Notes: a model not told the origin generated them from the sequence alone. DNA of 64,000 bases from Owenia fusiformis (GCA_903813345.2 CAIIXF020000001.1:27590001-27654000), one strand, 5' to 3'; shown: positions 5,392 to 44,591, counted from the stretch's first letter. Translations and numbers: made by a program.

Positions 5392-5715
5392 CTGGTTCTA
5401 GTATGTAATCCCATTGCCTGAATAAACAAAACAAAATGTAAATGATAATTCCAATGAATCCCAGTATGATTATATAAGGTAAACATCAAATCAATAGCTT
5501 CTATTAATAGAGGATCAAAAATTAATTGGTTCTGTGAAGATTTTCATGGGTGACACACCCCACATTCATACCATTTGGTCATTTGAAGTAGTCCTATTTA
5601 GCAATCAAAAATCAGGACACAACTTAGATCTAAGCACCATTATCAGAAAAAAGTCAGGCCATCCCCCCCAACTAGCTATATCCAATGCTTTTATACTTAT
5701 CCCTCAAAACCAAGA

Positions 5716-6740
5716 GTGGAGTTTGAGACAGGAAAGTTGCAAACACACCATCAACATATTTCGCCTGAGATTTGTCTGCTTTTCAGTCCTTTCCGCACCT
5801 GTTTTTTAATGTTTGTTTCATCAATATGTTGCGTTTTGGGACTCAGTTATCCTCTTAAAAGAAAAAATGCATTCAATCAGGGGTTTTAAAGATGTCAATT
5901 GTGGGTGACCAAAATTAAGCTGAAAACAATGGATTGCATGAGTTTTCCCTATGGGATATGGGAAAATACCATGGGAAATATTGTTTTCCACTTTATCCCA
6001 AAGGAATGCATTTTTCCTTTAAAGAGTTAACACTGTCTCAAAACATAACATACAGGGTGTCCCGAAAGTATCCCCCCTAGGCAGACATATTCCATTGTCT
6101 TCATGTATCATATCATTTATCCAAAGTTACATTGATTCAGCAAGTATCATGGTTCAACTCTCAAATGTGACAAAATTACAGGCATTTCAATTTTTAGTGT
6201 TTGGCCAAAATTCAATTCAATTGAACACCAAATCACTAGTCAATGTGTCCTCCAGGGCCATCTTAACAGCAGCAATTCTTTTCGGGTTGGATGGATATTG
6301 AGTTGGAAAAAGAGACGGTGAGGGTTGATACTCCAAGGAAACTCTTCAAAAGTGCCTTAAAAGATTTTAAGAGGATTGCAAAATTCCACACCCTGTAGAG
6401 CTTTTATGGTCCTATCTGAAAAGAATTGCTGCTGATAACATGACCAAGGGAGGACTCATTGACTTGTAATGGGGTGTGAAATTGAACTTTATTTTGGCCA
6501 AACACTAAATTTTAAAATGACTGTCACTTTTTCCCATTTGAGAGTTGAATCATAATTCTTGGCAATTCAATGTAACTTTGGATGAGCTTTAAAATGATAT
6601 ATGACATACTATGATGACACTGGTATATGTCTGCCTAGGGGGGGGGGGCAAACTTTTAGGATAACCTGTAAAATGATACATCAAACATTGAAAAAACATG
6701 TTGGTGGGATGTTTGCACCTTCCCTGTCTCAAGTTCAAAT
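5716..6740. mobile_element. Degenerate foldback MITE, interrupted by a Tc1/mariner MITE
   Basis: TTTGAGACAGGAAAGTTGCAAACA at ~5722 is inverted at ~6711-6735 (TGTTTGCACCTTCCCTGTCTCAAG); the inner arms 5825-5880 and 5995-6050 are also inverted. Confidence 0.55.
6053..6668. mobile_element. Tc1/mariner-type MITE (copy 1)
   Basis: TA|CAGGGTGTCC...CCTAGGCAGACATAT at the left end and ATATGTCTGCCTAGG...ACCTG|TA at the right end; long imperfect arms; related copy at 46437-47057. Confidence 0.8.
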
Positions 6741-8494
6741 CTTTTTATCATCTCTATGAGTGCTTATCCTGGAGTTAATGCATTGGTCTAACATATGCTC
6801 CTGTTTAAAACCTCAGAAATAGCCCAAATCCAACTTTTGAATGTCTGAAGCCTGTTGTGATACTTTCTGTGTGTTTTTCTAATTCATCTATGCAATTGCA
6901 TATTCTTTTATATGGATGACAATATTTTAGTGAAACTTTAGTATTTAGTCAATAATTCTTCTAATGTAATATGATGTATAAGCTAAAACTATTGCTCTTT
7001 TGTCAAGTGAACCATTAGACAGTTCTCAACATAATGTCAAACTCAGACTCAGAAATGTTAAAATGTGCCGAATCAGCACTTTTGAAAGTGATTCATAAAA
7101 TATCAACAATCAAATTTTGCATGTCCTGAGGTACCCTACATGGATCTTAAGTCAATTTGAATATTGATGATATGCTTAGATATATGACTTGCTAGATTTT
7201 ATCAATTTTCAATGGTACCCCTTTCAATCCTGGAAGAAGCACCAGTGTGCTAAAGAATTTTTTATTCTATTCATACTTAATATTTTTTATCATGATTTTG
7301 CATGGGTATTAGGAATAGCCTCCAAATCATCTGTGATTTTTTACAGTAAAAAATATCAAGGAATTAAAAAAATGTTGATTCTTTTAGAAAGCGTTTGTCT
7401 ATTAGACATTTCAAAATATTGGTTGTCAAAGGGTTAAAAAGAGACTTTTAAGTTAAATTCAGCTCAAATATTTTTTTTGAGTGTGACGTATTCTTTGTAA
7501 TCATCAAATTTATCATAAAATTGCCTAATATCTAAAAATTTGGATAGCTATGATTTTTTTCATTTTTGACCCCCTCCCCGAAAATGGCTGAGGGGTATAA
7601 CATGACATTTTTCCAAAATGAGGCTTGTACATCTTCGTACAGGCAACTAAAATTGCTTGAAATACCATACAGAACCACCCCACAAAGTTTCACGATTTGT
7701 TCCATCAAAAATTATAAGAAACATGAATTCCGTGTACTACCATTACAATGTAATTTCACCAGCACACTGTTATATGTACTTTTATAATAAATCATTAGAC
7801 TTCAATTACAGCATTTAAAAAGAACAGCTGTTCATTATTTTTATAATTTATTGCTTCACAATTGTTTTTTAAAAGTAATCGACTGAGAATACTCAAGCAA
7901 AATGGCAAGAAACTATGTCTATTTGTATAGTATCACTTGGCTTTCTGATGGTTCTGTTATATAGCACAGTAAAATCGACTAAAATGTATGTCCTTGAAGT
8001 TGGAACCAACTGATATATGTTAACATCGAGAGACATATGTCAACATTAAGAAACATATGTTAACATTAAGAGACACTCACATTTCAACTTATCACAGCTT
8101 ATTTCATTAGAAACTGAACTTGAAATGGTTCATAATTTGAGACTTATAAGTATTGTGTTCACATACATGTTAACAGGTTTTACTGTATCAAGACCATTTG
8201 CCATTATTATTTATATTCATTTAATATAAATTATTTTTCATAGAATATATAATAGATTACACATATATTATCTTTACGCTTCTTGAGCATGAACTTTAGA
8301 GATATAGCAATAATATTTTTTATCCCCTTATTCACAAACAACCAAGAGGCAAGTAAACATTATCGTCCTTTGTTAAATGTTATCGTAAGTTTAACTTAAA
8401 GACAGATGATAATATTCATGCGATTTACGTAAAAAAGTGATATGTCGATATATCCTTATTTTCACTTAGACTTATAAATCACCAATTTTTGTAG

Positions 8495-9871
8495 TCATAT
8501 ATCAAGGGACTTATAACTAATGCACTTGACATGAGCACTTTTCAAATTAGCAAGGTCATATGTTGAAGATACAAATGCAAGGTTATCATGAGCAGTATGA
8601 AGTCTTGTGATATTTGTTAGAGGCGACGCTTCCTGTTTTTTAATTGGTTTTTTGATTGCTTTACAATTGCACATTTGATGCAATCGTCTTCGAAAAGTTG
8701 GATGAAAGATACAATAAAGATAGAAATTGACCGTTGAGTTGAAAACTAAAAGACTTTCCTTGATGCCCAAAAATGGAATCAAAATGTTGTCTGGGACATA
8801 GAATTCATTGTTGCTTCCAATAATTGCTGATATAAAGTCTGGTGTTTGACAAATGATTACAACTGTAATCATGATGACAAGGTTTAAGGTGATGTTTGTG
8901 TTATGATTTGAATGCCTTCCAGCTGTCCCTGTCTGCCCCACAGCTGTCCTGGCTTGACTCACAGCTATCCCTGTCTGCCTTACAGCTGTCCCTGTCTGCC
9001 TTACAGCTGTTACTGTTTGACTCACATCTGTCCCTGTTTGTCTCACAGCTGTCCCTGTATCATGCACCATGCATGTCAATGTGCGTTGTAATTTCTTTGA
9101 TTTTTTAATTTCATGCACCAGTTTTATATTCAGGATAATCATTGTTATAATAGGGATTGAAAATAGAAATATAAATGCCAGAATAATATGGTAGATGAAC
9201 CTGTAAAGGTCTTCATTCCAGCCATTCAAAGTGACTTCCCCTGAAAGATGAGACACAAATGTGGCATTTGGTAATCCGCCTGAATTAAATGCTACATATT
9301 GATAATGGATCCATCTAGGAATGTTAAATAACACGGCTATTACAGATATCACCACCACAGTTCGCTTAGCGTTGGTATTTGTGCACATTCTATAGGCCTT
9401 AAAAGGTCTTGAAACAATTATAAATCGATCAACCGTGACAGCTGTAGCCATCCAAATAGTGCCAGTCTGTGCTGTCCAACCTACTGGTAAAACATAGGCT
9501 ATGATATAAGCACCCAAATCATAATACGACTTTAACGATCCTGTGTATGGATACACTGATCTCAATACTGTGTACAGTAAAGTATAGATTAGAAACACAA
9601 TATCAAAAACTGCCAATGCTTGTAATATAATACAGTTTGAGTTCCGTTTTGATTTTTGGAGCACTATTATAATTAATATATTCCCGATAAATCCGAACAG
9701 GCAAAATAATCCATTAATGTAGACATTGAGAATGTAATTGAATAAAGCATAGTCGTTTGTTGGAGTTGTCGCAAATGTTGTATTTAATGACTCCATTGTA
9801 GGTGTCAGATATGACATATTTGATGTCATCATTAATGTTGATGTCAGATCCGTGTTATTTGATGTCAACAT
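8495..9871 (-). CDS. Intronless class A peptide GPCR, FMRFamide-receptor-like (~458 aa)
   Basis: Seven hydrophobic segments; GFIGN in TM1, LAVFD in TM2, DRF after TM3, FNIPRW in TM4, QTP in TM6, NSTVNFYLY in TM7; S/T- and N-glycosylation-rich N-terminus. First ATG at 9871 (the ORF-track start at 9886 is TTG). Confidence 0.92.
   Translation of the reverse strand: MLTSNNTDLTSTLMMTSNMSYLTPTMESLNTTFATTPTNDYALFNYILNVYINGLFCLFGFIGNILIIIVLQKSKRNSNCIILQALAVFDIVFLIYTLLYTVLRSVYPYTGSLKSYYDLGAYIIAYVLPVGWTAQTGTIWMATAVTVDRFIIVSRPFKAYRMCTNTNAKRTVVVISVIAVLFNIPRWIHYQYVAFNSGGLPNATFVSHLSGEVTLNGWNEDLYRFIYHIILAFIFLFSIPIITMIILNIKLVHEIKKSKKLQRTLTCMVHDTGTAVRQTGTDVSQTVTAVRQTGTAVRQTGIAVSQARTAVGQTGTAGRHSNHNTNITLNLVIMITVVIICQTPDFISAIIGSNNEFYVPDNILIPFLGIKESLLVFNSTVNFYLYCIFHPTFRRRLHQMCNCKAIKKPIKKQEASPLTNITRLHTAHDNLAFVSSTYDLANLKSAHVKCISYKSLDI
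8920..9060 (-). repeat. 21-bp coding tandem repeat (TGTAVRQ-like heptads) in GPCR intracellular loop 3
   Basis: About 6-7 copies of CAGCTGTCCCTGTCTGCCTTA-like units; translation HDTGTAVRQTGTDVSQTVTAVRQTGTAVRQTGIAVSQARTAVGQTGTAG. Confidence 0.9.
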
Positions 9872-11160
9872 ACCTGGCTCAAGCAATAGCTAAAATCCCT
9901 CAATGTTCCCAAGATCAATGTAAATCCAGATTAATTATTATTTTCTGTTATACTCTGTAATTGCGACAGGCTTTAATAGCTATTAATGTCAGATCTGAGA
10001 TTCTCCGAAGTTTCACTAAGTATTATTGGCAGAGTGGCTAGTTGTAATTGTTTCAAAGGATTTCCTATATTTCACTCTCTATCACAAATCAACCTCTCCT
10101 CAATTAGTGAAGATGGATAGATTCGAAGCAGCTCTAGGTATTTTCATTTGTTCTTGGAAATGTTATCATATCTTCCCCTCTGGCTTCATTATACTGCATG
10201 CATGTTTCACTCTTATTCCCTTGTCTATTGAATAATGTGAAATTATTTTGTCATTTGACCAGTGGCATCCTATTATCTTTCATCATAAATAATTTTGTGC
10301 AATCTTGAAAATAATAAATTTAGTTAATTATCACACTGCTCTTTGTGAGCATAATTGTATCATTATGTGAGTTCTGGTCAAGATACTTAACGCGCCTTTA
10401 AGTCTTTTTACAGCAAAAAGTAAAAGTACATACAAGCTATCATCATCACCTGACAATTATTTACAATTATATAAATTGCAATGCAATATAACTCCAAAAT
10501 GTCAAAACTCCCTACAATTATTTGTTCAGTATGTTGTTCATTTATTACAAGGTTAATTAATATTTTTAGCCAAATAAGCATTGCTTTTTATGTTCATGTA
10601 GAGTATAGATATGGCCGTGAGAGTCGTACATGTAAAATTATTAATATAAAATTAATATAAATAAATATTGAGCCAATTAACACAAAACACAATACCTTGG
10701 AAAATAATGGCTAATTTAAGTTAATTAGCTACAAGAGTTTACACTTTGACATAACTGTTAATTAGCTCAATTGGATATATTATAATACCATCTCCAACTC
10801 ATCTTCTTGGGCGAAAATAAATCTCCAACTGGTGGTGTAAGCTGGGGAAGGAGGTGAGGGAAAAGAATCGAAATGTATAACTTACATTGATGTTAATGGA
10901 TTTTGTACGCACCTAGGGAGAAAACCCTCCAACTACAATCCTATCGATATCTCGTCTGAAGTCTCATCTCGTACTCTCGAGATCTGAAGCTTGATGTTTC
11001 GTTCAGTGTAACTTACCAGAAACATTTACCTGGGATAACCGGGGAATGGTCTTCTTAGGGCTTGTTCATACCTAAACCTTAACCGACTCTCACATTGCCA
11101 TAAATGAAATTATTGTCAATAATTTGAATATATCATCAATTAACTGTTGTTGGCAGGTCT

Positions 11161-35876: not shown

Positions 35877-36406
35877 CACTGGCGACCCACTCGATTACGC
35901 TGGTTACCGAAACGGTTCGTTTTGGTAACAAAATGTCGGAACGTCGAAGGTACGATTTTTCTCATTTCTTTATTTCACACGTTGTAGGCAGAATTCCCAC
36001 GACATTTTGTATGAGTATCATATGTTTAAAAAAATGTACATACAATGTGCGAACAAATAGTTCAGAAGACAACAAAATCGTCGATTTAATTCTTCACTTA
36101 AGTTACATAAACGGTTTTTCGAAAAAAAGTTAAGATCTGCACTTTTAACCCAAACCGTTTATGTAACTTAAGTGAGGAATTAAATTGACGATATATTCTG
36201 TTGTCTTCTGAGCTATTTTTTCGGCAAACATGAACATTTTCTAAAACATATGATACTGATATACGTCTGTGAGAAAAAAGTCGTGGGGATTCTGCCTACA
36301 ACGCGTGGAATAAGGAAAAAAGAAAAATCGTACCTTCAACGTTCCGACATTTTGTTACCAAAACGAACCGTTTCGGTAACCAGCGTAATCGAGTGGATCA
36401 CCAGTG
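35877..36406. mobile_element. Transib-type foldback MITE
   Basis: CACTGG...CCAGTG termini, 5-bp TSD TATCT, nearly fully palindromic. Confidence 0.85.
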
Positions 36407-37100
36407 TATCTGTCAATCATCGCGAGTAGTTACAGAAACGAGAGTTCTGACACACCTATAACATGGAGTCCTATGGGGAGGGACACGATTTTTCATAGTA
36501 CCCTCCCTAACATGGGCTCCAATGGGGAGGGACATCTGTGAGCCTCCCTGAGCTCGGGAGGCACATACGGGGACCCCACCCCTCCCCCCCTCGGCGTGGT
36601 GGCGTGTACATATTTCGGGGATCTCGGCCCCTAGGGGTAACGGACGCCCTACCCCACGTCTGTACGTTTACTGTAAGGGATACTATTCGAATTCCCGCCA
36701 AAAATAAATCGATAAACCAGTACGCGTCGTAAATGTCACTACCTTATTTATAAAGTGCGGCCCAGGCGGATTATCGATTACCTATCAACCAGGCGTTTCG
36801 TACTCGCGAGGTCTTATCGTTTTAAGGTCATCCAGCTGTCAGTTTACGAAACAAATTACTCTGGACTGTACTTTAAAGTGCGGACCTAACTCGATAATCG
36901 ATTATCAATCAACCATCCATCAACTTTAATTAGTGTAACGTCCTTCATCGATTTAAGATCATACCGTTTTATGGATGTTATATTTGATTGTGATAAATAT
37001 TTATTTTGCCAATTCGTCAACACACTTCTTTTCAAAATACATCAAATAAATACATATTTACATTATAACATTCAAAATTCTTCATTGAATCAGACACAAG

Positions 37101-38202
37101 TTACAAAGGTATTAAATCGGAATCTTTAACCCACGAATCAAACTTTTTTGGCCAATATTGACAACGCACTAAATGTTCCCGTTGCCCTCGTCTTGTTCGT
37201 GTTTTCAAGATTTTTTCTACTTTCCAAATATCATCTTCATTCGCTTGTACTCTTTGAAGCTCCGATTGGTAAAAAGTACCCTTAATGTCTTCATTTTGAA
37301 AATCATTTAAACGATATAACGGGAGGCCCTGTCTAATGAAACGTTTCGCTACTTTAAAAATTTCCCCTGTCCAATGCTCGTTGTATTCTCTTGTAAAAAC
37401 ATGTCTCGACTGGGTAATTCTAACCAAAGCTCCAATGGGAAATTTAAATATATATTTAGACCTAGTTTTAACGACAGCTAATTTTGGGATAGTACATCCG
37501 CCACCAAATGGCCAGTTCATCGTCTTCAGTTACATTTTTAGGAGCCATCTTTATGCTCCTATGCCAGGTGGCGTTATAACTTTTAACAAAATTTTGCAAA
37601 TTGTCTATATATCTATAGTTCTGTTTATATGTCATGAACCTCATCATTTTCGTCTTCAATGTCTTTATAAGGCGCTCGGAAAAGTTGGCTTTGGGCGTAT
37701 TTTCCGTAACAAAATGGCGTACTCCCCATCGAGCCAGCAATGTCTGTACGACCCTCGCGCGAAATTCTTGACCTTTATCTGTTCTAATGACATCTGGTTG
37801 ACGCTGCCCTTCTTTGAAGATGTCATCAAAGGCCTCTGCAACAGCTTTACCCGTCTTGTTAGGTAGAGGCTTAACCCAGGCAAAACGGGACATGATGTCA
37901 ATGACGACTAGGATAAATTTCGTATTGTCATTCTCTGTTGACCAAGTAGACATATCCATGAGATCAGCATCCCATTGTTCATCAATATGTGAAACATATA
38001 CTTTATTCCGAGTAAATTGTCTCTTATAAGGTCTCTGTAGGCCATAAGCTTCTTGATTGTCCAGCCATTTCTTTATCTGATAACGGGACAGCTGGTATTT
38101 CCCATCATTTAGTACAGCTCTATAGAGTTTGTCTGGTCCAGCAAAGGCTCCAGAATTTCGACTGTCAAAGTATAATTTCTTTAGATAGTCTTGATATGCC
38201 AT
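37101..38202 (-). CDS. Polinton-type retroviral-like DDE integrase with C-terminal chromodomain (one frameshift near 37485)
   Basis: ORF 38202-37468 has WDADLMD, IRTDKGQEF and KANFSERLIKTLK (D-D33-E) plus YNATWHRSIKMAP. Overlapping ORF 37520-37101 has FPIGALVRI, WTGEIF, GTFYQSELQ and the chromo motif WKVEKILKTR..HLVR..WPKKFDSWV. Removing one A from CCCAAAATTA joins them. Confidence 0.9.
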
Positions 38203-38261
38203 CTTACACTGTCGGAATCTAACTCCTTAATGACGATCTCTCTTTAAATTGCTAATATTTA

Positions 38262-39857
38262 TCACTCAGTGCTTGATTCAACAGCCTCGTTTTCGGATTC
38301 ACTCTGTTCTTCCTCAGAACTACTTTCCTGGTCTGTATCCTCTATAAAGACCTCATCAAACTTGTGTTTGTTTTTTAAAAGTGTCTTCCTAATGGCTAAG
38401 TTCACAGAGACACCCCTCCTCATCATATTAATTATTGAATCAATTGTATTTCTGTGTAACGCATTGTCTTTTACATCAACCGTTAGCTTGACGAATTGTT
38501 TATATCCTTTCATAAATTCTTCCTTATTCTTCGACAATAGTTTATTATCTGCCTTTTCTACAGCCTCTGTCTTATCCATCCCTCTATCCATATACTCATC
38601 CACTTTACGTCGGTGGTCTTCCTCATTCTGTCTTAAAGACCACTTCTTTAAGAATGCAAATGTTTCATTTGCTTTCAAATCACCATCATCGTCATCAACG
38701 TCATTGTCTTTGTCTTGAGGAATCTTCTCCTCAATATTTTGGGTAGATTGGGTCCTCATCCTCTTGGGTAGTGGTCCCTGATCTTGACACCACTTTTTTA
38801 TATGCCTCTGTAAGTCGTGAATGCTATCAAATACTAAACCACAGTCATCACAGGATACCATGTTGTCTTCTCGAAATTCACGTTCCAAGTAAGGGTAGTT
38901 CTTAACATCACTACTATTTATAAATGTTGTCGTCGGAAAGTCGACTTCTGAAATACCCTGTCTTTCAAGTAAGTGTTTTGAATCATTCATTGGTTCCTTG
39001 AAGTTGCGGGAATCGTGATGAGTTTCAAATTCAACTTCACTTTTAGTAAAGGCATTTGGTTTCAATCTGCTGTGCTCCGAAGTTTCTTGCTTCAGATCAA
39101 GAAGCAGGTAACCATAGGGTCGACTAGTTGCGTTGGTATATGCTCTGACCAACTTGTTTCCATTTCCGGGGTACATCTGCCTCGATAAGAATGCCACCTG
39201 TTGGCGATCTCTCGCGTTATTAAACAGTATCATATAGTGAGAGTTTAAGCTCATCGATCTATTCATTTTTCCTTGATGATACATATTCTGGAGTAGGCAT
39301 ATCACAGACAGATTTCGATGGTGACTGCCTTTGCTATAGAGATCACATATCCGTTGATCATTTGTTGCCTCATTCATAAGATCATCGAGAAGCATCAAAG
39401 TAGGAACTGAAGTGTCAAGGTATCTTGAATCATCAATATCCTCTGGTATTCCCTTCACAAATTCCAAATGTGGGTATTTTCTTAGCTCTTCGTAGGCAGG
39501 CTGCCATTGACCATAACACCAGATGATTCTTCTAGGAATTGGGGATATATACCGTTCAACATTTTTGATCAAGTGCTTCATAAGCCAGGTCTTCCCCGAC
39601 GATGTTGGTCCGGCTGAAAATACAAAACAAAACAAAAAATATTTTTTAATAAATTGACATGCTCTCTTTCTATATTTAGAAACCTATCAGACTTTTAATT
39701 TCAACATGTCCATGCCTATACCTGCTATCATAGTAAACGGATGTTTCAGCATAACATCAGACTGATGCATTTTTTCTCCATGAAACTTATTCATATGCCT
39801 TGATAGGTTATCACCTCTCGTAAAATTCACACTACACTCAGAACAATTGAAAGACAT
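38262..39857 (-). CDS. C2H2-ZnF / A32-like (FtsK-HerA) Polinton packaging ATPase / ZnF / helical domain fusion, 2 exons, 495 aa
   Basis: Exon 1 39857-39722 (MSFNCSECSVNFTRGDNLSRHMNKFH...HPFTMIA), GT-AG intron 39721-39614, exon 2 39613-38262. Splicing restores HPFTMIAAGPTSSGKT (Walker A); Walker B LMLLDD; GSHHRNLSVI-LLQN and RPYGYLLLDL motifs; second finger CDDCGLVFDSIHDLQRHIKKWC; acidic tail. Confidence 0.9.
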
Positions 39858-39882
39858 GTTGTCTGTTCAAGATCTATCAGTA

Positions 39883-39950
39883 AAATGACTCAAAACATGG
39901 ACAACTTAAAATATATAAGAATATTCTAATGTGCAGTATTTTGATTGGTT
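39883..39950 (-). promoter_or_regulatory. Putative Pol II promoter of the ZnF-ATPase gene
   Basis: On the minus strand: CCAAT (~39948), TATATA (~39917) and Inr-like TCATTT (~39888), ~30 bp apart and upstream of the ATG at 39857. Confidence 0.45.
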
Positions 39951-40025
39951 CAAAATGTGTCAATTAAGATCAATTCTAAACATAAACAGGCATTTATGAC
40001 ATTATAAACTATTGAATATTAAAGT

Positions 40026-40562
40026 AAAGGGAGGGGACGAGGTTTGGAAGATGGAGAAGAGACAGGAGGAGGTTGGGTGGAAGTAGGAGGAGGTATGAGG
40101 TAAGGAGGAGGTAGGGAGGAGGTGGGAGGAGGTAAGGAAGAGGTTCGAGGAGGTAAGGAGGAGGTAATGATGAGGTAGGGAGGAGGTAGGAGGAGGTGGG
40201 AGGAGGTAAGGAGGAAGCGGGAGGAGGTAGAGAGGAGGTGGGAGAAGGTAAGGAAGAGGTAAGGAGGATATAGGGAGGAGGTAATGATGAGGTAGGGAGG
40301 AGGCGGGGGGAGGTAAGGAGGAGGTAAGGAGGAAGTGGGAGGAGGTAGGGAAAAGATGGCTAACTTCCGCTTTAAAACCTACCCAGGCCGACTAAAAGAT
40401 GCCTCACTTCCGCTATGATGTCACCCTCTTGCCCAGACAGATGCAAAATGGCTGACTTCCTGCTAGAAAGCTTCAAAATGGCCGACTTCCGGTTAAATGG
40501 CTGACTTCCGGGCTGACTTCCGGTCAAGTGGCTGACTTTCTGTCAAAATGGCTAACTTCCGG
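40026..40562. repeat. Subterminal purine-rich (GGAGGAGGTA)n tract followed by an AAAATGGCTGACTTCCG motif array
   Basis: ~325 bp of GGA/GGT repeats (40026-40350), then ~8 copies of (AAAAT)GGCYRACTTCC (40354-40562) abutting the right TIR. Confidence 0.85.
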
Positions 40563-40620
40563 AACGTATAGTCGTGGGGTAGGGCGTCCGTTACCCCTAG
40601 GGGCCGAGATCCCCGAAATA

Positions 40621-42559
40621 CCAGGTCGTTCAATAAGTTCTCATAATTTTGCTCTCATTTTAAGAGTTTTTTATATTTTTCCATGAAAATTTCACAGACG
40701 ATGCAGAATGTATCTGTGTAACAACCCTGCAAAAATTAAGTTTTAATTCTAATGGTCGTGAAAATGGCGGTTGTTATAGTAACATGAAAAATGGGTAGGC
40801 GGGGCAGATTATTTGACGTCATAGTGGCATATAATTCAGTTCAACATTGTGGAGAGTAACAAGTGTTTTAATGTCATGTAGTCCCATTTATCCCATGAAA
40901 TAGTATGGGGTAAATGTTTCTATTCCTACTTTAAATGCTCAAAATAATGTCCATTGGATGCGACACACTTTCGATGACGTTCTACCCAATCCTGGAAGAT
41001 TTTATGGAATCCATCAGGAAATCTAGCTCTGAGAGCATTTTGGACTGCATTCTGCAAATCTTCTGTCGATGCAAATCGAAAACCTCTCAGCTCATCTTTC
41101 ATTCGGCCAAACACGCCAAAGTCGCATGGGGCTTCATCAGGTGAATATGGTGCCTGTGGGAGAACTTCCATTCCGAGTTCTCCTATGGTGTTCAGTACAA
41201 GTTCTGCCCGGTGACACGGGGCATTATCCTGATGAAATATTCTTGTCGCCAACTCTAGGAGGGGGCGTTTCTTTGAGAAGGCCCGTTTGAGATGCCTCTT
41301 GAGAACCTGAAATAGTCAGTAGGATAGGATACTAATGCCTTTAACATTTGTACTTAACCATTTTTATAGTTCAAATCTGATTTTAAATTTGATTTGATTT
41401 AATGTTTTTACTCTTATATTGATTAATTTATTAATAATGAATAAGCTTACCATTGCATAATAGTCCTTGTTTATTCTCTGACCATCAGGAATTGCATGCG
41501 TAAGCAGCACCCCAGAGCTATCCAAAAACACAATGAACATCACCTTGCCGTCATTTTTGGTCAGTTTTGCCAGGGTTGAAATGGGAGTAGGTGAGTTCTT
41601 AGTTCTCCAACCACTTGATGCTCTCTTCCCAAGGGGCTCATAATAGCTGACGTACACCTCGTCGCATGTGATAATTCGTTGAAGAAAACTATCCCCTTCA
41701 TCTTGGTATCGTCTTAGAAATTCTTGGGAAACCTCAACTCTGCGGGCTCTCTGGTCACTAGTTAACTCCTTTGGCACCCATTTAGCACACATGAGGTTCA
41801 TTTTAAGCTTCTCTTTCAGAATGAAGTGTGTTCTACCTATACTAATGTTCACATTCTCACTAAGTTCCCGTACAGAGATGCGGCGATCATCATCTAGAAC
41901 TGTCTTAACTCTTTCAACAGCCTTTGGGCTGGTGACTTTTACCGGTCTGCCAGTCCGTTTTTCATCCATCACAGATTTTCTTCCCTCTGAACCAAACCTT
42001 TGATACCATTGGTATATGGTAGGTGTGCTCATTAACTCCTTTCCATAAATATCTTGAACTGCTTTTATTGTTTCTCCTCTTGATTTCTTGGATAACACAC
42101 AAAATCTTATCACACTACGGATTTGAATTTGAATTTCATCTTGACTTTTCACAAGACCACAGTCAGCTGCCATCTTGGGTCTCTCTATTGAAACCTTTTC
42201 TGTGATGTCATACCTTTTTATGTGATGTCACAGTAATAACTATACTCAGAAAAGTTGCATCTTTCACACTGATGTCAAAACCTGTTTCTATGGTTGCAAA
42301 TCTTTCAGATAAAACATATGACATTTCAAGATGAAATCTAACTACATCCATGGATTTTACGATCAAATAAAGTTGCCCCGCCTACCGATTTTTGACGTTA
42401 CTATAGCAACCGCCATTTCCACAACCATTAGAATTAATACATAATCTTTGCAGAGTTGTTACACAGATACATTCTGCATCGTCTGTGAAATTTTCATGGA
42501 AAAATATAAAAAACTCTTAAAATGAGAGCAAAATTATGAGAACTTATTGAACGACCTGG
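40621..42559 (-). mobile_element. Mariner (DD34D) transposon, apparently intact, inserted in the Polinton right TIR
   Basis: TA|CCAGGTCGTTCAATAAGTTCTC...GAGAACTTATTGAACGACCTGG|TA; ~190-bp TIRs; the left Polinton TIR shows the empty site with a single TA. Confidence 0.95.
40926..42173 (-). CDS. Mariner transposase, 2 exons, 367 aa
   Basis: Exon 1 42173-41451, phase-0 intron GTAAGC...TTTCAG 41450-41307, exon 2 41306-40926. Motifs: HTH region with TGRP, WVPKEL, ITCDE, HQDNAPCH, YSPDEAPCDF (D34D). Confidence 0.93.
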
Positions 42560-44591
42560 TATGTACACGCCACCACGCCGAGGGGGGAGGGGTGGGGTCC
42601 CCGTATGTGCCTCCCGAGCTCAGGGAGGCTCACAGATGTCCCTCCCCATTGGAGCCCATGTTAGGGAGGGTACTATGAAAAATCGTGTCCCTCCCCATAG
42701 GACTCCATGTTATAGGTGTGTCAGAACTCTCGTTTCTGTAACTACTATCGCGCACTTTGATGTTCCACTTTATCAATGGTTTGTGGTTTACATTTTTCGA
42801 GTGTTTTATACTTTCCTAGGACTATCTTCTGTGATTTTTCAATGGTCAAAAATATTGTCGAGAGTGGGGCAAAACGGCCCATGGGTGGGGCAAAACGGCC
42901 CACCCTCTGTTACATGGGTTTTAAAACCAAAATTAATCAATTACAAGACTCGTCCACACACATAATATCTCAGACGTTCAAACCTTTGACAGATAAAGTA
43001 TTCTTAACCCCTACCATAATTCTAGTCATTCGATATGTGTCGGAAGGAATTAAGGTACAAGCCAAATGTTAAAATCGTTATATTTGAAAACCAATTGCTC
43101 TTGCACAATAAGATTTTTGTATGTTATAACATGTGTGGGCCATTTTGCCCCAAAGACATGTGAATTTTCAAATAGACCTCTTAATTTGCCTAATAGTTGA
43201 AGCTTGAAATTTTTACAAATAAAAAATAAATGTGCATACTCTATGTAAAATGTTAAATCAGAATCAAAACGATATTCTATCATTTTGTTGCCGGATTTTT
43301 TTAGAGATTCTCGTGGGAGGGGTTATTTACAAAAAGAGGGTGAAAAGTAGAATTACCTCTAAAGCGAGACGCTGCTTGGTTATAATGGGCGGTCGAGAAG
43401 GTGGCAGAAATTTCAAAATTCGATTATGTGACTTTTGAAGAACCATCTTTTTATAGGTTCAAAAGATATTTCGATAGGCCACTTTGCCCCAGACGGCCGT
43501 TTTGCCCAATGTTCCCCTAGTACTTGAATCATGACAATATAACATCGTTAAATTCGTTTAAATTAGAAATGCTCTCGGTTTGGAATTTGATTTTACAATA
43601 AAGCTGTAATTTGTGCATTTAGATCGCTTTTGTTACATTGACGTAAGTCCGTCAAAGTAACATAAGTTACATTGGTAATATAACGGGGTTTCGTCAATGC
43701 AACAAAAGCGAGAGGCTCAGTATATGAATTACAGCTTCACGATTTACAAAACAAATTCCAAATCAAGAAACTTATTAAAACTAGGCTATTTTCTAGCTTT
43801 GGGCCAAATTATAATCTGCAACTTGACTTATTAGGTTTAAATCGAGAAGCCAAAAATTCGTAACCATTCCGTCAAAGTAACTAAGAAAAATTCGGTATAA
43901 CCTCAAGTTCGGTAGCCTACAATGCGCGTCGGTATAATGGGTTTCGGAAGACTATAATGCGCGGACTCCCTTTTGCCAAGGGGAAACGAACTCCCGTGCA
44001 GTGATATATCTATACCGAGACACTGCATAGGAGTTCGAAGGGGAAATTCACGTTTCGTAAAAACATATACAAGGGTTCACATTTAACCATTTTGGTCCAA
44101 ACTTAAATCATTACTTGAAAAGTAGTCAGAATAATGGAAAACTGATTTTGAAAGAATTTTTGTCGGAGTGGGAGGGTTTGCTCGCCTCACTGACTTGTTA
44201 TATTCACCTCCGCCGGGCCATGCCCGGCCCTGGTCAGTCACAGGCCTGACACTATAGTCTAGTACTGAAATACAATAAATCAATCAATCTTACTCTTCTA
44301 AGGTAAGTCAACTTTACTGAACAAATTGAGACTAGTAAGTTACAGTGAGGCCAGAGATGGTTATATATAATAGCACCCCCCCCCCCCCCCCCCCGGGGAC
44401 CCCCCCCCAGCTCAAGAGTGCCAGAAAAAAATTGAGTGAAACTTGAGACCTATGTCAAGGGTTGAAAAAAATTCAAAAATTATTTTGGAGTACCAGTTGC
44501 TTTTACATTATACATATTTGTACACAAAGCTGTTCAAACATGTAAAGGAGGAATAAACAATTAGTCATTTCCTTTCGTTTCATGATGCACA

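Follow-up and report, generated by a model that had tools for sequence, protein, structure and literature searches.

In a 64,000-nucleotide stretch of the genome of Owenia fusiformis (GCA_903813345.2, CAIIXF020000001.1:27590001-27654000), which we call the window, positions 36425-42746 form a bounded mobile unit of 6,322 bp whose ends resemble those of Polintons and whose two genes, both on the minus strand, encode an integrase and an ATPase of predicted packaging type. We consider it probable, with real room for doubt, that this unit derives by internal deletion from a Polinton/Maverick element of a lineage common in molluscs and is itself non-autonomous. Indeed, both ends are kept and a propagation function, the polymerase, is missing, which is what characterises a non-autonomous derivative. 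The initial annotation, made from the sequence alone, had taken the unit for a candidate satellite of Polinton viruses.

Boundaries and gene content of the element

The features of the element are the following (coordinates, strand, description).

36419..36424, no strand: left copy of the target site duplication (TSD), ATCGCG, identical to 42747-42752
36425..36668, plus: left terminal inverted repeat (TIR), 244 bp, starting with AGTAGT, with two 27-nt subterminal repeats spaced 49 bp
36669..37100, minus: non-coding spacer from the integrase stop to the left TIR, 432 bp; no Pfam match; contigs at gene-like depth in three runs
37101..38202, minus: integrase gene with rve core, SH3-like part and chromodomain (Pfam, reading frames)
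38203..38261, minus: spacer from the ATPase stop to the integrase start, 59 bp, no poly(A) signal; bridged by contigs of three runs (38022-38480)
38262..39613, minus: ATPase exon 2, with Walker A (GPTSSGKT), Walker B (LLDD), a middle C2H2 finger and a helical C-terminal domain (residues 310-429)
39614..39721, minus: predicted GT-AG intron, 108 nt, which restores the motif spacing of relatives
39722..39857, minus: ATPase exon 1, with the start codon and an N-terminal C2H2 zinc finger (Pfam)
39858..40562, minus: upstream non-coding region, 705 bp, with tandem repeats and motif matches; candidate promoter or protein-binding array
40563..40620, minus: right TIR, inner 58 bp (97% inverted-repeat pairing, BLASTN)
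40621..42559, minus: nested mariner/Tc1-type transposon, foreign to the element, inside the right TIR (TA duplication, inverted repeats, domains)
42560..42746, minus: right TIR, outer part, with ACTACT at its end (inverted repeats, BLASTN)
42747..42752, no strand: right copy of the TSD, ATCGCG

The unit is delimited on both sides. Read from the sequence, it begins with AGTAGT and ends with ACTACT, and it lies between two perfect 6-bp copies of ATCGCG, preceded on the left by CAATC and followed on the right by CAC (to 42755). Its termini take the form AG...CT, the 3' CT being the exact inverted complement of the 5' AG. Three differences separate the left and right arms of the 244-bp TIR; the outer 165 nt are 100% complementary, and BLASTN aligns the arms as 188 nt at 99.5% identity (one indel, in a C run) plus an inner 58 nt at 96.6%. 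The termini, the TIRs (first put at about 245 bp) and the TSD reported in the initial annotation are hence confirmed, and so is the size of about 4.4 kb with an integrase and a packaging ATPase as the only genes: without the nested mariner, the element measures 4,381 bp. What that annotation had not recorded is a break in the integrase frame, a predicted intron in the ATPase gene, and that BLASTN finds no second copy or fragment of the element in the 64-kb window.

The nested transposon is 1,939 bp long and is flanked by a TA duplication (40619-20 and 42560-61). Its inverted repeats are unusually long (189 nt, 95% identical), and Pfam recognises in it HTH_48 (E=2.1e-8) and Transposase_1 (E=6.5e-6). 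The transposase lies in two frames, 41364-42227 and 40926-41315, separated by an AT-rich stretch.

Polymerase, capsid and protease genes are absent from the element. We used as TBLASTN queries all the reading frames of two full-length relatives (L027 and L081). Apart from the ATPase and the integrase, nothing matched: neither the polymerase, capsid-like, penton-like and protease-like proteins nor the other proteins of these relatives had a match in the 64-kb window at E<1e-4. Moreover, a Pfam search of nine reading frames from the spacers had no match at E<=0.1. The earlier statement that no remnant of these genes is visible was therefore borne out by both searches. Because the polymerase is absent, autonomous replication by the Polinton route is impossible. 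According to the abstract of PMC5499653, Polintons by definition encode a polymerase and an integrase, and by this definition the element is a derivative rather than a strict member of the group.

Polintons/Mavericks share with the element a 6-bp TSD, TIRs of hundreds of base pairs and a 5'-AG end (as given in parts of PMC6839031 and PMC3014272), together with an rve integrase carrying a C-terminal chromodomain and an ATPase of A32/FtsK type. The differences are the missing protein-primed polymerase, major and minor jelly-roll capsid proteins and adenain-type protease, the size (4.4 kb vs 15-20 kb) and the 3' end, which is written TC in an excerpt of PMC6839031 and is CT here.

The two genes are co-oriented and 59 bp apart, as first described, with the ATPase stop at 38262-64 and the integrase ATG at 38202. 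The rve domain of the integrase stands above the Pfam cut-off (E=2.9e-11, 43.9 bits vs 32.6), and its chromodomain match stands under it (E=5.7e-4, 20.2 bits vs 25.1); the chromodomain of the integrase in the related locus L009 clears this cut-off. The catalytic DDE residues, D80, D142 and E176, are invariant in 8/8 aligned integrases, including those of the polymerase-/capsid-bearing contigs L027, L081 and L033, and the window protein is 33-38% identical to the integrases of polymerase- and capsid-bearing contigs. In the window copy the gene occupies two frames, being broken near 37482-37490, in a homopolymer. At this point, the window differs in length from all or nearly all of the contig depth (three runs) and from 3/4 RNA reads, so that the break is private to the window copy or to its assembly. 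One chromodomain residue is also replaced, C in the window and W in 7/7 relatives. With this broken frame, this lost tryptophan and a mariner in one TIR, the copy is not pristine.

The non-coding parts contain a few candidate signals. In the left spacer, a minus-strand AATAAA at 37005-37000 may serve as a polyadenylation signal. The upstream region consists mostly of a tandem repeat, with a GGAGGAGGT-type array at 40064-40351. Next to it, ATGGCNGACTTCCG has five matches, compared with 0.01 expected in the window, all of them at 40356-40561, adjoining the inner edge of the right TIR; none was found in the 87 loci scanned. On the gene strand this motif reads CCGGAAGT, which we take to be an ETS-type binding consensus. 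The region 39858-40562 may act as a promoter or a protein-binding array, and it is also the candidate site of the deletion breakpoint.

The ATPase and its relatives

The ATPase frame is intact in the window copy once the predicted 108-nt intron joins the zinc-finger exon to Walker A, and this splice recovers the family spacing HPFTM-xxx-GPTxxGKT of the relatives. The corresponding joint is not among the 15 RNA joints listed of 169, RNA depth being 0 over exon 1 and the intron. The finger of exon 1 falls under the Pfam cut-off (zf-C2H2, E=5.5e-5, 23.8 bits vs 25.2), and the same N-terminal finger is found in the relatives P0003, P0005 and P0027. A C-terminal region of about 170 residues follows the second C2H2 finger.

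Among 3,806 candidates, 486 are relatives of this ATPase at E<=1e-3, many of them annotated PF04665 (Pox_A32); the window protein itself has no match to PF04665 at E<=0.01. Those that are named come from scallops and a pearl oyster. The best full-length relatives show 33-39% identity across 94-100% of the query and have the whole architecture, i.e., the N-terminal finger, the ATPase, the middle finger, an acidic stretch and the helical C-terminal domain. An alignment of 14 sequences shows no variation in the Walker A and B residues. The tree built on the ATPase domain places the window protein on the side of the long form of the enzyme (SH-aLRT, the Shimodaira-Hasegawa-like approximate likelihood ratio test, 87), on a long branch and within no strongly supported subclade.

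The AlphaFold model has a mean pLDDT (predicted local distance difference test) of 64, with about 70-79 in the ATPase domain and 81-94 in the C-terminal helices. In BFVD, its fold matches A32-like or packaging ATPases, giant-virus ones among them, at ranks 1, 2, 4, 5 and 7 (E 2e-6 to 4e-4), with Sputnik V3 at rank 10. By these matches, the ATPase is of the virion-packaging type, with a predicted role in packaging. Foldseek gave no match in PDB at E<=0.001, and the pyridoxal phosphate (PLP) enzymes in its top rows, which lie above that value, were taken as noise. A sequence profile retrieved only zinc fingers from PDB, and the C-terminal domain had no usable match in the protein atlas. A complex prediction for the ATPase and integrase of L012 gave no answer (score 0.00).

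We asked whether the long form is a fusion of the ATPase with the two small proteins encoded between ATPase and integrase in canonical elements. BLASTP found no similarity (best E 3.3), so that the long form does not result from such a fusion; among longer proteins, the only fused ATPase gene model was an unrelated kinesin fusion. The zinc-finger fusion had been proposed as a satellite adaptation. On comparison of the relatives it recurs throughout the ATPase lineage, of which it is an old and widespread architecture. The protein-primed polymerase of the canonical relative L027 (2586-7598) also has N-terminal C2H2 fingers (zf-C2H2, E=2.3e-15), so zinc fingers are a recurrent add-on among these elements. 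In L043 (472-1971), a C2H2 finger, the ATPase and an adenain-like protease domain (Peptidase_C5, E=5.9e-6) follow one another in a single frame, through either a fusion or a missed intron or stop.

Gene neighbourhoods were compared at 81 loci fetched by ATPase homology (80 of the 548 confirmed metagenome matches and one viral contig). The short form of the ATPase is carried by 51 of them and the long form, that of the window, by 30. Short-form loci follow a canonical compact layout, in which polymerase, ATPase, two small genes and integrase are followed by the genes of the capsid module; of the 51 loci, 18 show the polymerase, 35 the small gene, 9 a capsid-like gene and 15 the integrase. At the long-form loci we found an integrase in 7, and a polymerase (L054), a capsid-like gene (L026) and a protease-like gene (L043, Peptidase_C5) in one each, the polymerase C-terminus of L054 lying directly upstream of the ATPase. 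An intact integrase stands directly downstream of the long-form ATPase, on the same strand, in 6/15 loci with at least 900 bp of downstream sequence, and upstream of it in L009. Prokaryote genome contigs yielded 6 ATPase loci, all of the short form.

Several observations bear on what follows the integrase. DNA similarity stops at the integrase stop in the pairs L005/L012, L008/L012 and L016/L041, and no frame of at least 90-100 amino acids follows the integrase within 1.0-8.5 kb in L005, L016, L041 and L012. Both genes are constrained between relatives, with proportions of non-synonymous differences (pN) of 0.14-0.41 vs saturated synonymous ones (pS) of 0.77-0.92. Judged from these comparisons, the ATPase followed by a last-placed integrase is a native, conserved module and not the product of tidy deletions. 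The clean gene boundaries had been held to argue against a random deletion; being native, and the ATPase-then-integrase order being found in 6 related contigs, they lose this value. A deletion with one breakpoint, upstream of the ATPase, could account for the structure if the parent was laid out as polymerase, ATPase, integrase, end, an order made plausible by the pieces found in L054 and in the loci with a terminal integrase.

Among 18 loci checked, flanking inverted repeats were found only in L004, at its ends (339 nt, 94%), and both ends were seen in 0/7 integrase-linked relatives; the terminal 29-mer of the element had no match in viral contigs. L004 (1-4242) contains a long-form ATPase, a gene with CARD (E=2.4e-13) and RING-finger domains, which looks like apoptosis-type cargo, two unknown frames and no integrase. 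L009 (4,404 nt) carries the integrase and the ATPase only, with non-coding flanks of 664 and 450 bp. In L012, the intact ATPase-integrase pair is followed (5683-10077) by satellite arrays with a period of about 360 bp, which together form a large inverted duplication (541-nt arms, 95%).

Origin and mobility of the element

We propose the following course of events. A parent element would have lost its interior, with the polymerase, capsid and protease genes, one of the breakpoints falling upstream of the ATPase, and would have retained both TIRs and the probably native terminal pair formed by the zinc-finger A32-type ATPase and the rve-chromodomain integrase. The element, or its parent, would have been inserted as linear DNA by the integrase, which would produce the 6-bp duplication. 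Having no polymerase, it would then multiply only where replication is supplied in trans by a related full-length element acting on common TIRs, which would also have to supply capsids if the element leaves the cell. The window copy itself is decaying, as seen from its broken integrase frame, its replaced chromodomain residue and the mariner inserted in one TIR. Both the deletion origin and the mobilisation in trans are thus what we infer from the structure of the element and the company it keeps.

Related copies are indicated by public sequencing data. Each of 20 runs of the same organism, from 6 studies, contains 52-59% of the sampled words of 36669-39900, and none contains them all. Four data sets were placed on 35900-40030: two sets of DNA-type contigs, one set of RNA-type contigs, and the raw reads of one stranded RNA run. 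Contigs within the element are short (about 200-820 nt), and in three runs several of them overlap every position. One set is nearly identical (0-3% different). Its per-contig depth is at least 4-30x that of the diverged contigs with the lowest depth (8-14% different) and stays about the same from the left spacer through the integrase, the intergenic spacer and the ATPase to 39648-40030. Words of the TIR are 5-15x deeper than those of the interior, and because of this large excess other elements must share the TIR. The contig depth over this interval hence suggests several to tens of related copies, along with TIR-sharing elements. A loose end at 36425 in run X2 was considered as a second insertion site and set aside, since it consists of adapter plus four letters, with one mismatch to the right flank, and is too short; no flank of another insertion was recovered.

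The genes also appear in RNA. In the stranded run, first mates on the plus strand reach a depth of 5-12 in the integrase and of 1-7 in exon 2 of the ATPase, while the opposite strand stays at about 0-2; the reads are almost exclusively sense to the minus-strand genes and carry the majority variants rather than those of the window. The window copy differs from the majority contigs by about 1%. Near-fixed differences between them are 6 non-synonymous/1 synonymous in the ATPase and 3/5 in the integrase, and those at partial depth are 6/6, counts from a selected sample (27 coding differences among 40 listed of 509) that is too small to carry a conclusion.

Several points weigh against a deletion derivative mobilised in trans. 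Neither a parent with the same TIRs nor a deletion breakpoint was found. PolB was detected in only 1/30 long-form loci, and in 0/8 with more than 1 kb upstream, so that the layout from which a single deletion would start is not the usual one of the long-form lineage; these counts come from short contigs and from polymerase queries of the short-form lineage. L004 and L009 hint that small ATPase-bearing units recur, and the ATPase frame of the window copy is intact. As to copy number, assembled-contig depth is a poor measure, and there is no single-copy baseline, the left flank (35900-36406) being itself a foldback repeat of very high copy number.

The alternative that survives best, which we nevertheless regard as unlikely, is a true satellite lineage under selection, bringing its own integrase and zinc-finger packaging ATPase and relying on the polymerase and capsid of a helper Polinton or adintovirus. 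The unit is complete and TIR-bounded, its ATPase frame is intact and of a type that the model assigns to packaging, nearly all related contigs and 3/4 RNA reads keep the integrase open where the window copy is broken, and RNA reads run in the sense direction. Long-term constraint on both genes is strong, ATPase-integrase pairs with long non-coding flanks occur in the divergent L005, L012, L016, L041 and L009, and the TIR is far commoner than the interior, hence common to other elements. Small units with the ATPase seem to recur (L004, L009), and PolB was detected in only 1/30 long-form loci, two observations that keep this alternative in play. Polinton variants that lack polB and are yet active are also described for a butterfly in part of the preprint 10.1101/2025.02.07.637071. 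However, neither a second mini copy, nor a different duplication, nor a helper was seen in the 64-kb window or in the runs placed over 35900-40030, and the zinc fingers, like the adjacency of the two genes, are ancestral rather than satellite-specific. The related contigs are too short to prove two-gene units, only 1/18 (L004) being TIR-bounded, and without integrase; retention of the ATPase is biased because the loci were found through ATPase homology; and the 6/1 ratio in the ATPase, in that small selected sample, fits neutral decay. We hold it doubtful that marine invertebrates harbour a hidden lineage of mini Polinton satellites, devoid of capsid and polymerase and built around a zinc-finger packaging ATPase, accompanied here by an integrase. 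By analogy, such satellites would use the polymerase and capsids of full-length Polintons or adintoviruses and their own ATPase for packaging, as a eukaryotic counterpart of phage satellites, which seems to us just as doubtful.

Somewhat less likely again is a one-off relic, i.e., a full-length Polinton that was inserted here and whose interior was deleted in place, leaving a 4.4-kb form that never moved and has no function. The TSD and the intact TIRs had been read as evidence of integration as a 4.4-kb unit, but they are equally expected after a deletion in place, which would look identical. The very many Polinton-derived regions reported from bivalve genomes in part of the preprint 10.1101/2025.04.19.649669 fit this explanation, as do the frame break, the replaced conserved residue and the nested mariner of the window copy, and the multi-copy signal covers only genes and native spacers, as a full-length family would give. 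Against it, the copy is young, because its TIRs differ at only 3/244 positions and it lies about 1% from the majority contigs. Moreover, the deletion must have spared exactly both genes, the whole upstream array and both TIRs, and no fragment of any lost gene is left.

Very improbable, finally, is an autonomous two-gene transposon that would be moved by its integrase, with the zinc-finger ATPase as a DNA-binding cofactor and with no need of polymerase or capsid, by analogy with the rve-type transposase and ATPase pairs of bacterial Mu, Tn7 and IS21. In its favour, rve integrase and ATPase are tightly linked and co-oriented in 7/30 long-form loci, PolB was detected in only 1/30 of these loci, and the ATPase carries, besides its two C2H2 fingers, a further conserved helical domain. 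Against it, the fold of the ATPase resembles virion-packaging and not bacterial transposition ATPases, long-form ATPases also adjoin capsid-like (L026) and protease-like (L043) genes, and Polinton integrases are not known to excise.

Known systems and neighbouring sequences

Deletion derivatives of the Ac/Ds and P-element type keep their ends, lose their interior and are moved in trans. The Owenia element, as a probable deletion derivative of a Polinton, differs from them in that two genes remain, apparently open in related copies, and in that replication is missing and not the recombinase. To phage satellites, such as phage-inducible chromosomal islands (PICIs) and P4, and to virophages, the likeness would be one of idea only, by analogy: no capsid genes, and dependence on a helper.

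The polB-lacking variants of Pieris mannii, which apparently still move according to part of the preprint 10.1101/2025.02.07.637071, are likewise TIR-bounded and polymerase-less. There, however, they are at least 12 kb long, keep capsid and packaging genes and carry retrotransposon cargo, whereas our element has only the ATPase and the integrase. Ginger2/TDD and GingerRoot elements are also small, TIR-bounded and equipped with an integrase-related recombinase and a 6-bp duplication, as presented in sections of PMC6839031. Their termini are given there as TG...CA, in contrast to AG...CT, they have no ATPase, and the integrase of our element aligns over its full length with Polinton integrases.

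Non-autonomous Polintons are hardly documented, and they were apparently absent from one lizard survey, as far as the relevant part of PMC3014272 goes. No two-gene Polinton derivative is described in the literature searched, i.e., articles apart from supplementary files and Repbase, which may contain similar entries; the nearest case there is that of the polB-lacking variants of at least 12 kb, and within that scope the 4.4-kb unit with integrase and ATPase would be the smallest such derivative. If mini copies prove numerous and selected, this would mean that Polinton viruses have satellites of their own, and the copies would offer a clue to which terminal sequences and proteins are sufficient for a Polinton to be replicated, integrated and packaged. 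As a one-off deletion, the element would be no more than ordinary genome debris.

Two other features of the window deserve mention. A foldback repeat resembling a miniature inverted-repeat transposable element (MITE) occupies 35877-36406, with nested inverted repeats (132-nt arms at 92% and three inner pairs), and stops 13-18 bp short of the Polinton insertion site. In public runs its word depth is about 100-500x that of the Polinton interior, and hundreds of reads have loose ends at 36406-36408, continuing into diverse sequence. Farther away, at 8495-9889 on the minus strand, an intronless frame of 464 amino acids resembles a seven-helix receptor and contains a TAVRQTG-like tandem peptide repeat in one loop.

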